This document shows, piece by piece, positions 18,110 through 25,734 of a DNA stretch of 32,000 nucleotides. The stretch lies in the NCBI GenBank assembly GCA_038858525.1, contig JAWCFL010000011.1, forward strand, positions 30,001 to 62,000, in the 5' to 3' direction. A program made the translations under genes and the position numbers. The notes beneath the pieces were generated by a model. The model saw only the letters and a list, made by a program, of their open reading frames with translations. It ran no database searches and was not told where the DNA came from. Each line of letters opens with the position of its first letter. Position 1 is the first letter of the stretch. The DNA comes from Candidatus Jordarchaeales archaeon (GTDB taxonomy: Archaea > Asgardarchaeota > Jordiarchaeia > Jordiarchaeales > Freyrarchaeaceae).

Positions 18110-19610
18110 AGTCCAGCTGAGCCACCCAGAAGTCCTTCAAATTAACGATGTACGGTTTTCCGGGTGTTGGTGTTAAGCCCATGGCTTTCTGATAATCTGT
18201 TTGGTCCTGAAATGTCCCTGAGTTTATCACGGTCACACCGCGATAATTTTCTTGCCCATTCACGTGAAGGTGGCCACAATGAAAAATATCTGGGACCTTC
18301 TCGATAACTAAGAGGTCCATTGGTTCAGGGGACAATGGCGTTGAACCATAGACTGGCGCTAAATGTCTTCCTCTAAGAAGCTCTATCATTGCTTTTTCCG
18401 GGTAGTGTGAGTCTATTGATAGAGCTGTCATCACGTCATTCAGCGGGTCTCCATGAAAGCATAACACCTCAACGCCGTGTATTCTAAAGTATGCTGGGTC
18501 TCCAAGCATTTCGACTCCTATTTCGTAAAGTGGTTCACTGTAATCTTTAGGTATGGCTGGCTGGGGTAATGCTTGCCTAGTTGCATCGTGCCCGCCCGGT
18601 ATAGCTATAGTCTTAACGTAGTCTGGTACGTTTTCAAGATGCCTCGCTGCTATTTCGTATTGCGCGTAGAGTTCCTCGACGACGAGCTCCTTCTCTTGAT
18701 TCGGGTAGACTCCGACTCCATCCACTATGTCTCCTCCAATTACCAAGTATTTAACTTGTTTTGCCAAGCTTCTGCTTTTCTCGTCCCCTCTTTTGCCCTG
18801 AAGCCATTCTAGGAACCTTGTAAATGGTTTCTCCATGAATTTCTTGCTGCCGAAATGCGTGTCTGAAATGAAGACCGCCATTATGGGTTCATCAGCCCTC
18901 CTAGGTTTGTGATCGAATGGTATGTCGGGCCAAATGATGTTATCAGCCACAACGAACGCTCCATTACTCCTACCTTCCACGCAGACTACTTGGTCCAGCA
19001 TAAGGTGTCGCGCCTTGTCTGTTAAGTTGCTCGGGATTAGAACGCTGACCACACCGTCAAGATCCTCAAGTTCTATGACCATGGAGCCACTTCGAGCCCT
19101 CGAAATTTCCCTGACTAATCCTATTAACTTGACTTCCTCGGCTCTGCCTACTTCACATGTCCTACATATCCCTTTTATGTCCCCCCTTTTCAGAAAGAGG
19201 TTGCTGAGACGCATATATCTATCCTTGAAGTAATTAACAAAGTCGTCTAGGGACCCACTGGTTCCTATCATCTTTGTTGGATCCATCACCACTTCAAAAT
19301 CTTCATCTACTTCCCTAGCGGTTAGGGCCGGCTTAGGCTTCAAGCCTGGAGGAATTATACTTTGTGCTTCCTCGCTTTTAGGAGCTTTTACATTAGTTGC
19401 TTCTCGGGGCTCCTCTTTTTCAATTAGCTTCCTAATATCTTCCTCTGTTAGGACAAGTGTTCCCTCTGTGGCCTTAACCTTACTTATGACTAAGGAAGCT
19501 AAGCTAGGCTCAAGTGCCAATATGACGTCTAGCGCTCTGGGAGTAACTTGCAGTCCGGCTTCAAGCAACTCCTTAACTGTTCTCTTTGCAACCTGCGATG
19601 TCCCTATCAA
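18096..19610 (-). CDS. polB: DNA polymerase D small subunit DP1
   Basis: YFKDRY, OB fold (ELEDLDG, DQVVCVEG), SDTHFGSK, GDIVDGVGVYPNQ, PGGHD, RQALPQP, RHLAPVYG, HCGHLH, NSGTFQDQT and TPTPGK. Confidence 0.96.
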   Translation of the reverse strand: MIGTSQVAKRTVKELLEAGLQVTPRALDVILALEPSLASLVISKVKATEGTLVLTEEDIRKLIEKEEPREATNVKAPKSEEAQSIIPPGLKPKPALTAREVDEDFEVVMDPTKMIGTSGSLDDFVNYFKDRYMRLSNLFLKRGDIKGICRTCEVGRAEEVKLIGLVREISRARSGSMVIELEDLDGVVSVLIPSNLTDKARHLMLDQVVCVEGRSNGAFVVADNIIWPDIPFDHKPRRADEPIMAVFISDTHFGSKKFMEKPFTRFLEWLQGKRGDEKSRSLAKQVKYLVIGGDIVDGVGVYPNQEKELVVEELYAQYEIAARHLENVPDYVKTIAIPGGHDATRQALPQPAIPKDYSEPLYEIGVEMLGDPAYFRIHGVEVLCFHGDPLNDVMTALSIDSHYPEKAMIELLRGRHLAPVYGSTPLSPEPMDLLVIEKVPDIFHCGHLHVNGQENYRGVTVINSGTFQDQTDYQKAMGLTPTPGKPYIVNLKDFWVAQLDFTGD

Positions 19611-23960: not shown

Positions 23961-24129
23961 CCGTCACCCCTCTCTTTTTCCAGTATTTCCCAATGTACCA
24001 TAAAAAATTTTTGATAAATGACACATATAAGATAACGTTTTGATCAATAAAACAAATTATCTTTTAGAATTTATAAAGATAAGTCCCCCGACACTCTATT
24101 AAAAACAAACTGAGAACGAAACTATAAAA

Positions 24130-24283
24130 TGGTGCGGGGGGTGGGATTTGTTCCCGCAGCAACGGATTGAACCCACGAACGCCTACGCCCACCTGGACTG
24201 CGCGACAGGATTCTGAGTCCTGCCCCTATAGCCGCTTAAACTTTGACTTAGCCTGCAGGCGCATCTGGCTTGGGTACCCCCGC
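24130..24283 (-). tRNA. tRNA-Leu(CAG) with four putative non-canonical introns; CCA encoded
   Basis: Acceptor GCGGGGG/CCCCCGC-A-CCA, anticodon arm CAGGA-CTCAGAA-TCCTG and T arm GTGGG/CCCAC. Removing 24248-24264, 24228-24242, about 24189-24203 and 24148-24166 gives a canonical 88-nt class II tRNA. A T-run follows on the minus strand. Confidence 0.9.
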
Positions 24284-24333: not shown

Positions 24334-25734
24334 TTAACTCTTAATGTTTGCAACAGTTTTCTCCGCGATGAGCTCCGCGACTCGTTCAGCTTTCCGTTTA
24401 AGCTTTTCTGTTATGTACCCTTTAATGAATGCTTCTTCGAGAGCGTTTTTGTCTATTATTTTTACGGTTCCGTTAGGGAATTGTATGACGTCAATCTCCA
24501 AGTCTATATATCTGATCCTATTGGGATATAGCTCTATGGGTGTGTTTATGTTGTAGAATGTTCCTTTAAGTTCTCCTTTTTTAGAGTAGTATTCCGTTTT
24601 GAATGTCCATTCCCCAACTTTTACTTGAGTTATGCCGTAGTCTCCGGCTTCCTTTGGTATGTTTAAGCCGTCGTAGTATCCCCCCGCCGTAAAACTTCTC
24701 TTTATGATCATCTCTTGATGGTCTCTCTTTTGAAGGAGCTTTCCATGAAGGAGTATTACTTTTCCATTGAGTTTCACGTGTTCAAAGCGTACTTCATCGT
24801 TTTTGAAGGCGTTATCAATGACCATTTTTTGGAGTAATTGGCTTGCTTCTTCGCGTAGTTCTGGATGTCTTGAAATGAGTTCCTCTGCGAAGTCTACTAT
24901 CTGTGCCACATCACTTCCTAACGCCTTATAGTAATGGTGCCCATTTATTGTCGGAGCGACTCTCTCCCTTATGTTGTCTAGCTGTCTTTTGATACTCGCT
25001 GGAAACTCAGCGATCACAGTTTCATCACCCTCCCTTACTAGTGTTGGCTCATCTAAATCCGCTGAGATGTCTAAAATCCTCCTCATTTCCTCTTCTAGCT
25101 CCTCTATTTCTTTTGCGATTAGTGAGAGGTCTGCTTTTCCCGCCGCCGTCCTAAATATTACCCCCATGCCTGCCGGCTTCATCTTATTGCCAAGATGGTA
25201 GAGGATGTCACGTACCTCTCTATTTCTGATTTTGTTACTTATGCCAATATGCCCACCGAAAGTTAAGACCACATATTTCCCTGCGATTGCTATTTCTCCG
25301 GTTGCTTGCGGTCTAGGGTCAACTTCATACACTCTCAGGAGCTGTACTTCCCCTTCTTCTCTAGCTTTTTCATTTACGGGAACTTTTAGACACCCGATAT
25401 CCGCTATTGCTTTTTCATCGTACTTTTTGATTATGCGTCCTACATAAATGGCGTTTAAGTTAGCTTCTGCTTTACGGATAATCACATCTTCCAGCCCTTC
25501 TCTAATAACACTGACTACTTTTCCCAACGGTTCCCTTTCACCAGTTATAATTACTCCCTGCCTGTTCTTCGTGTCATAAACCTCTACATTTGGAGGGTTC
25601 ATTGTTCTTTCAATTTTTAGTCTTTCAGCCAGTATAGCTGAACTTTGAGTTATTGAGAAGCCATGTTCTAGGAAAAGTTTGGAAAGTGCTGTAGCGTATA
25701 TCCCTCTGACTCTAATTTGTATCTCTTCTCCCAA
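24334..25734 (-). CDS. fau-1: FAU-1 family ribonuclease (RNase E/G-like N-terminal region plus DUF402)
   Basis: IRVRGIYATALSKLF, GIIFRTAA-like GVIFRTAA, LDNIRERVAPTINGHH, GGYYDGLNIPKEAGDY and YNINTPIELYPNRIRYIDLEIDV. Confidence 0.92.
   Translation of the reverse strand: MGEEIQIRVRGIYATALSKLFLEHGFSITQSSAILAERLKIERTMNPPNVEVYDTKNRQGVIITGEREPLGKVVSVIREGLEDVIIRKAEANLNAIYVGRIIKKYDEKAIADIGCLKVPVNEKAREEGEVQLLRVYEVDPRPQATGEIAIAGKYVVLTFGGHIGISNKIRNREVRDILYHLGNKMKPAGMGVIFRTAAGKADLSLIAKEIEELEEEMRRILDISADLDEPTLVREGDETVIAEFPASIKRQLDNIRERVAPTINGHHYYKALGSDVAQIVDFAEELISRHPELREEASQLLQKMVIDNAFKNDEVRFEHVKLNGKVILLHGKLLQKRDHQEMIIKRSFTAGGYYDGLNIPKEAGDYGITQVKVGEWTFKTEYYSKKGELKGTFYNINTPIELYPNRIRYIDLEIDVIQFPNGTVKIIDKNALEEAFIKGYITEKLKRKAERVAELIAEKTVANIKS

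Follow-up and report, generated by a model that had tools for sequence, protein, structure and literature searches.

A tRNA-Leu(CAG) gene with four probable non-canonical BHB introns in an archaeon of the Freyrarchaeaceae

The interrupted locus and its four inserts

On the minus strand of the window analysed here (the whole stretch of 32,000 nt taken from contig 11 of a Candidatus Jordarchaeales genome, that of a hot-spring Asgard archaeon), a segment of 154 nt at 24283..24130 begins and ends like a tRNA gene but is passed over by the usual tRNA scanners. The question it raises is whether it encodes a working tRNA-Leu(CAG) broken up by introns, as had been proposed from the letters alone, or a relic that is never spliced. 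Its ends read GCGGGGG...CCCCCGC-A-CCA, which gives a 7-bp acceptor stem, a discriminator A, and an encoded CCA (24130-24132), followed by a T-run. In the unspliced window ARAGORN found no tRNA and Rfam returned nothing at gathering thresholds; the intron mode of ARAGORN likewise made no call on this gene, and a permissive Rfam search of the region (E <= 10) gave no tRNA match. The warning that standard scanners might miss the gene was thus borne out for both ARAGORN and the Rfam tRNA model. Elsewhere in the window the intron mode reported a "tRNA-Tyr(ata)" with a 320-nt intron at 18326-18735 (contig 11:48326-48735, minus strand), which had no Rfam support and looks like a false positive.

We numbered the gene so that position p corresponds to window coordinate 24284-p and resolved it, on the minus strand throughout, into five exons (19+5+30+16+18 = 88 nt). 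Exon 1 (24265..24283; gene 1-19) contains the 5' strand of the acceptor stem, U8, the 5' strand of the D-stem, and the D-loop through G18, and is followed at 18/19 by intron 1 (24248..24264; gene 20-36; 17 nt). Exon 2 (24243..24247) is a micro-exon of only 5 nt, GTCAA, which supplies G19-A21 of the D-loop and is all that separates intron 1 from intron 2 (24228..24242; gene 42-56; 15 nt; 21/22). The 3' strand of the D-stem, the anticodon arm (loop CUCAGAA, anticodon CAG), and the 5' half of the variable arm make up exon 3 (24198..24227; gene 57-86), after which comes the variable-loop intron 3 (24183..24197; gene 87-101; 15 nt), whose boundaries are the least certain of the four. Exon 4 (24167..24182; gene 102-117) carries the 3' half of the variable arm, the 5' strand of the T-stem, and the T-loop through A58; it is followed at 58/59 by intron 4 (24148..24166; gene 118-136; 19 nt), and exon 5 (24130..24147; gene 137-154) completes the T-loop, the 3' strands of the T-stem and the acceptor stem, A73, and CCA. 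The 37/38 site is free of an intron, all four excisions lying elsewhere. Because all five exons are colinear within the 154 nt, a split or circularly permuted gene was ruled out.

Immediately 3' of the CCA, a T-rich stretch read from the sequence (TTTTATAGTTTCG on the gene strand; 24117..24129, minus strand) is a likely candidate for an oligo-T terminator. The next gene upstream on the same strand (24334-25734, minus) ends 50 nt before the tRNA gene, and its product of 466 aa, in which RNase E/G and DUF402 domains were recognised, is a candidate archaeal FAU-1-like RNA-processing nuclease; the adjacency of the two may be a coincidence.

The product spliced at these boundaries has the features of a class II tRNA-Leu, namely the anticodon CAG, a 14-nt variable arm with the stem CGC/GCG, and A73, together with U8, A14, G18G19, and the T-loop UUCAAAU. 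ARAGORN called it as an 88-nt tRNA-Leu(cag) when all four inserts had been taken out, and gave no call if any one of them was kept, in agreement with the canonical 88-nt product and the unused 37/38 site of the original prediction. We also ran a search blind to the proposed inserts, in which BHB-like introns (a 4-bp central helix, H, and 3-nt bulges) were listed and the smallest set restoring a strict cloverleaf was sought. The minimum for this gene was four excisions, and all the solutions listed contained 20-36, 42-56, and 118-136, differing in the variable arm alone.

The BHB motif consists of a central helix of 4 bp with 3-nt bulges on opposite strands, the cuts falling after the second base of each bulge. 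All four inserts had this form, with a 4/4 central helix, two 3-nt bulges, and an inner helix (h') of 2-4 bp, while the outer exon-exon helices were weak or absent (h = 0-2), which places the motifs in the relaxed HBh' type. Intron 1 has H AGCC/GGCT, bulges AG^A and AA^G, and h' TGC/GCA; intron 2 has H (A/G)GTC/GGCT, bulges AA^A and AT^A, and h' GT/GC; intron 4 has H GTTC/GAAC, bulges AA^T and AA^A, and h' CCGT/GCGG. For these three the central helices, bulges, and sites were exactly those first proposed, and the inner helices (3, 2, and 4 bp, respectively) are additions of this analysis. When inserts 1 to 4 were shuffled, a strict BHB at a product-equivalent boundary arose with frequencies of 0.001, 0.009, 0.014, and 0.010, which puts the joint occurrence of all four well outside what chance would produce. 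When the entire precursor was folded to minimum free energy (z = -1.56), the BHB of intron 1 formed and the other three competed with alternative pairings; since this fold displays the first motif alone, global folding is a poor test here.

Two other candidates were set aside. Group I and group II introns, which are hundreds of nucleotides long and possess a ribozyme core, were ruled out by the length of the inserts (15-19 nt) and the lack of any match to an Rfam intron family. A BLAST match on contig 49 to the stretch of intron 1, micro-exon, and intron 2 fell within coding sequence and was due to chance.

Orthologous genes and the intron in the variable arm

Orthologues were collected from three genomes of the same genus (G001, G002, and G003), one of a sister genus (G004), and three of a sister family, eight in all with the present genome (G000). 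All four inserts are found in G003. G001 and G002 have three of them and an intact T-loop (GGTTCAAATCCCAC), and G004 also has three inserts; it is without intron 1, its D-loop reading GAGTCTGGTCAAA, and its T-loop contains a different intron, of 13 nt, at 56/57. Intron 1 (18/19) is accordingly shared by the four genomes of the genus and missing from G004, intron 4 (58/59) is present in G000 and G003 and cleanly absent in G001 and G002, and the intron at 21/22 occurs in every one of the eight orthologues examined, sister family included. The intact stretches of G001, G002, and G004 are natural intron-less alleles and fix the boundaries of introns 4 and 1 without recourse to any motif. In five of five genomes the spliced product was 85 nt long (without CCA). 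Within the genus the products differed at 1-8 positions, and the changes in the anticodon stem of G002 were fully compensatory, while introns 2 and 3 were only 42-80% identical between genomes. Judged at the level of sequence, the combination of exons that are conserved, introns that drift, and BHBs that persist is the pattern expected of spliced introns and not of a decaying gene.

For intron 3, the best cut was at gene 87-101 (window 24197..24183), with H GCGC/GCGT, bulges AG^T and AG^G, and h' CC/GG. A strict motif was found at one common site in G000-G004, just after the G(U/C)AG of the variable loop, with H GCG(U/C)/GCG(C/U), the bulge pattern AG^N ... AN^G kept, and an inner helix that covaries among the five genomes (CC/GG, CGG/CCG, CCT/AGG, CCA/TGG, and CGC/GCG). 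Excision of 87-101 leaves the arm U-CGC-GCAG-GCG-UUC, one base away from the congeners through a U-to-C change in the variable loop. The variable-arm insert of 15 nt thus stands as predicted; the CCTG/CAGG helix and the cuts assigned to it do not and are replaced by GCGC/GCGT at 87-101, since that helix would require 14 nt to be excised and would leave the variable arm badly paired, and the 15-nt alternative has no 4/4 helix.

Other BHB-like cuts with acceptable cloverleaves were possible at 81-94, 84-98, and 85-97, and the same four-intron tRNA could be cut in the variable arm where it was first placed, at 81-95 or, equivalently, 84-98. A 15-nt excision there yields U-CGC-GUAG-GCG-UUC, which is the spliced variable arm of three congeners and makes the entire mature tRNA identical to that of G001, and 84-98 has a relaxed BHB with H 3/4 and an outer helix of 3. 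However, no placement equivalent to these has a 4/4 central helix, whereas 87-101 has a strict HBh' at the site used in four other genomes, with the bulge pattern kept and the intron ends homologous, at a cost of merely one U-to-C change in the variable loop. We consider the earlier cut unlikely and take gene 87-101 as the probable boundaries of intron 3 on the strength of this comparison.

The Leu(CAG) gene of the sister family, examined in three genomes, has 183 nt plus CCA and needs four excisions, at D-loop position 21/22, in the variable loop, in the anticodon stem at 30/31, and in the T-loop at 59/60. Sharing with the sister family makes the 21/22 and variable-loop introns order-wide, and the distribution of the remaining ones is consistent with lineage-specific additions through repeated gains. 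By its occurrence in the genomes compared, the 18/19 intron is genus-specific. This species and its closest relative probably gained the 58/59 intron recently, the direction of the change being drawn by parsimony with G004 and the sister family as outgroups. Alleles with and without single introns, such as these, are useful for asking how introns of this kind arrive. As a separate observation, the Leu(CAG) genes of the eight genomes all end in an encoded CCA, and several other tRNA genes of the present genome have no CCA, e.g., Leu-UAA on contig 12 and Leu-UAG on contig 1.

The failure of standard tools to recognise the locus would also fit a decaying pseudogene, riddled with insertions and never spliced, with CUG read by another tRNA-Leu. 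Against this, the exons are near-invariant across the genus while the inserts diverge and the stem changes are compensatory, each insert keeps its BHB in each genome, with covariation, CCA-bearing orthologues have been maintained across two families, and most other tRNA genes of the genome are built alike. The locus is, moreover, the sole Leu(CAG) candidate found: an intact second tRNA-Leu(CAG), which the original prediction had named as the sign of a pseudogene, was looked for in the assembly (92.7% complete), and no second CAG anticodon hairpin in a tRNA-like context was present there. We judge a pseudogene very improbable. An ARAGORN "tRNA-Leu(cag)" at contig 3:53645-53750, considered as a second copy, proved to be a tRNA-Val(CAC) with one intron.

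Less probable still is a tRNA with three introns only, in which the variable-arm insert is kept as part of an unusually long variable arm of 29 nt. In its favour are the tolerance of class II tRNAs for long variable arms and the boundaries of intron 3, which are the least certain of the four. Against it, the product retaining the insert was rejected by ARAGORN. Between fixed flanks, the length of the insert ranges within the family from 15 to 19 nt and is greater in the sister family; in five genomes the insert has a BHB whose inner helix covaries, and its removal leaves the same arm of 14 nt in each.

Order of splicing and the splicing machinery

With four introns, two of them 5 nt apart in the D-loop, the order of their removal matters. 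In the central helix of intron 2, the first pair is made by the base immediately 5' of GTC. In the precursor this base is an A, with which intron 1 ends; once intron 1 is gone, it is G19. Either base can pair in this genome (A-U or G-U), and in G001, G002, and G003 the helix is 3/4 in the unspliced form and becomes 4/4 once intron 1 is out, so that the interdependence of the D-loop introns suggested in the original prediction is upheld by the three congeners. If both introns were cut before ligation the micro-exon would be released, which makes it most likely that intron 1 is removed and ligated first. We infer that the likely order is intron 1, ligation, and then intron 2. The principle of ordered splicing is already known from Thermoproteales (PMC8450103). 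The micro-exon and the junction-dependent motif of intron 2 offer a simple substrate for studying ordered cutting and ligation by EndA and RtcB. A similar layout was seen in the Met-CAT gene of this genome, where the D-loop likewise holds two introns with 5 nt between them, the second acquiring its BHB only once the first is out.

Two EndA paralogues are encoded in the genome, each with N- and C-terminal EndA domains (PF01974/PF02778), the alpha paralogue in the region of contig 3:81835-82089 and the second (beta) in that of contig 43:5978-6235. The alpha paralogue matched best the catalytic subunit of Aeropyrum pernix EndA, 3P1Z_B (E = 1.6e-48, full-length alignment), with the catalytic Tyr/His/Lys aligned and the loop region GQPL..KP...F..PL between the N-terminal strands kept. 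The second paralogue, of 198 aa, has Ala in place of the catalytic His, as expected of a structural subunit, which it would appear to be. The end-to-end alignment of the alpha paralogue with 3P1Z_B likens the pair to the A. pernix enzyme (alpha2-beta2, PDB 3P1Z/3AJV); it differs from that enzyme in that the second paralogue is full length and closest to M. jannaschii EndA and the fused 5X89. We designate the two a putative alpha/beta pair of the A. pernix type, with a predicted broad specificity. RtcB is also encoded (601 bits), so both the endonuclease and the ligase for BHB introns are present in the genome.

In the pathway that we propose, transcription would give a precursor of about 154 nt, in which a heterotetrameric (alpha-beta)2 EndA would cut after the second base of each bulge. 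Intron 1 would be excised and its exons ligated first, the new junction base G19 completing the central helix of intron 2, and joining of the exons by RtcB would produce an 88-nt class II tRNA with A73 and CCA. Overall, we hold it very likely that the locus is a single functional tRNA-Leu(CAG) gene with four BHB introns, a reading in which their actual splicing is deduced from the motifs, the orthologues, and the encoded machinery. The original claim of four non-canonical introns is sustained by the ARAGORN call, for which all four had to be out, and by the search minimum of four.

Other tRNA genes of the genome and the published record

A survey of the other tRNA genes and of the EndA type had been proposed as a check, and it yielded, besides the alpha/beta pair of the A. 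pernix type, 70 introns in 27 genes. The survey paired acceptor-stem strands in non-coding DNA, passed the pairs through an ordered BHB and cloverleaf search with prefix pruning, and validated the results with ARAGORN. The 27 resolved genes have distinct anticodons, and their 70 BHB introns (mean, 2.6 per gene and 22.8 nt) come from a search that leaves some 40% of the tRNA genes to be expected undetected, Leu(UAA) on contig 12 among them. The most frequent sites were the D-loop (16), the T-loop (14), the anticodon loop (12), and the 3' strand of the D-stem (10). A decoy search of the reversed genome gave no ARAGORN-supported solution among 477 candidates. Plain scans of the genome recovered 8-14 loci with the Rfam tRNA model and 11 with ARAGORN, several of them wrongly.

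Five genes in the survey needed four excisions. Besides Leu-CAG, these were Met-CAT (contig 11:10510-10695, plus strand), Phe-GAA (contig 1:96788-96931, minus strand), His-GTG (contig 39:14590-14738, minus strand), and Pro-GGG (contig 1:109836-110027, plus strand), each of which requires at least four BHB excisions. Four introns are thus at the high end but unexceptional in this genome.

How these numbers stand against the literature was then considered. Up to three introns per archaeal tRNA gene were given in the description of tRNAscan-SE 2.0 (2021; PMC8450103), and the original prediction had implied that four would be new. That implication does not hold: Supplementary Data 4 of Valentin-Alvarado et al. 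(2024, Nature Communications; PMC11291895), a paper that reports introns in 92-95% of the tRNA genes of Atabeyarchaeia and Freyarchaeia, has four-intron rows for Arg-TCT, Ile2-CAT, and Leu-GAG of Freyarchaeia and for Trp-CCA of Atabeyarchaeia-2, and a preprint of October 2026 (bioRxiv 10.64898/2026.10.13.758758) describes up to five intervening sequences in one gene, Jordiarchaeaceae included. With four-intron tRNAs tabulated and five in the preprint, the claim of novelty falls, and an earlier catalogue of such genes had been foreseen as removing novelty only. Four introns are striking yet typical of the lineage, and the known maximum per tRNA gene is unchanged.

The preprint gives 2.0-2.4 intervening sequences per gene and a median intron length of 22-23 nt for these Asgard families (Freyrarchaeaceae, Jordiarchaeaceae, and Atabeyarchaeaceae), with which the 2.6 introns per gene and the mean of 22.8 nt found here agree. 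Jordiarchaeia and Atabeyarchaeia, as described there and in PMC11291895, are of the same lineage, and most of their tRNA genes are interrupted by several non-canonical BHB introns, which are short (about 22 nt) and in many cases lie in the D-arm or T-arm. In the text consulted of these two sources the present gene and genome are not shown, nor is a junction-dependent intron 2 BHB or a 5-nt micro-exon discussed. Thermoproteales (Sugahara et al. 2008, as summarised in PMC8450103) likewise have multiple non-canonical BHB introns that are cut by a broad-specificity alpha2-beta2 EndA, and they are quoted with up to three introns per gene and a mean of 0.84 (1.54 in P. calidifontis). Unlike theirs, the present gene has four introns, none of them at 37/38, and comes from another phylum.

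G006, a complete genome from the sister family, agrees in its coordinates with the Freyarchaeia genome that has been published: the intervals given there for Pro-CGG (1625968-1626071) and Asn-GTT (1651332-1651462) coincide exactly with those tRNA genes in G006. At G006:C1:1631535-1631720 it has a four-intron tRNA-Leu(CAG) of 183 nt (+CCA), for which the published Freyarchaeia table (38 tRNAs; Supplementary Data 4 of PMC11291895) has no row. Whole genes, and not just single introns, therefore escape current annotation, and with tRNA finders at their default settings the decoding set seems to have a gap. If this is true more widely, a census built on genes found by tRNAscan-SE would under-count the intron burden. 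The two-part proposition that D-loop splicing is obligatorily ordered, sparing the micro-exon, and that whole four-intron genes are missing from the published Asgard catalogues seems to us evenly balanced between right and wrong. The gene is in any case a clean, well-documented illustration of how extremely tRNA genes are fragmented in some Asgard archaea, a condition that has been recognised only of late.

Two further genes deserve mention. In the 109-nt Leu-UAA gene on the minus strand of contig 12, the D-loop insert fails even a relaxed BHB rule (H >= 3/4, 3-nt bulges), and some introns of this genome may use atypical bulge sizes. At contig 3:22477-22579 (plus strand), ARAGORN called a 75-nt intron-less tRNA-Met with an odd T-arm; removal of a 28-nt BHB intron at 58/59 from this 103-nt gene gives a better, initiator-like tRNA with the T-loop TTCAAAT.
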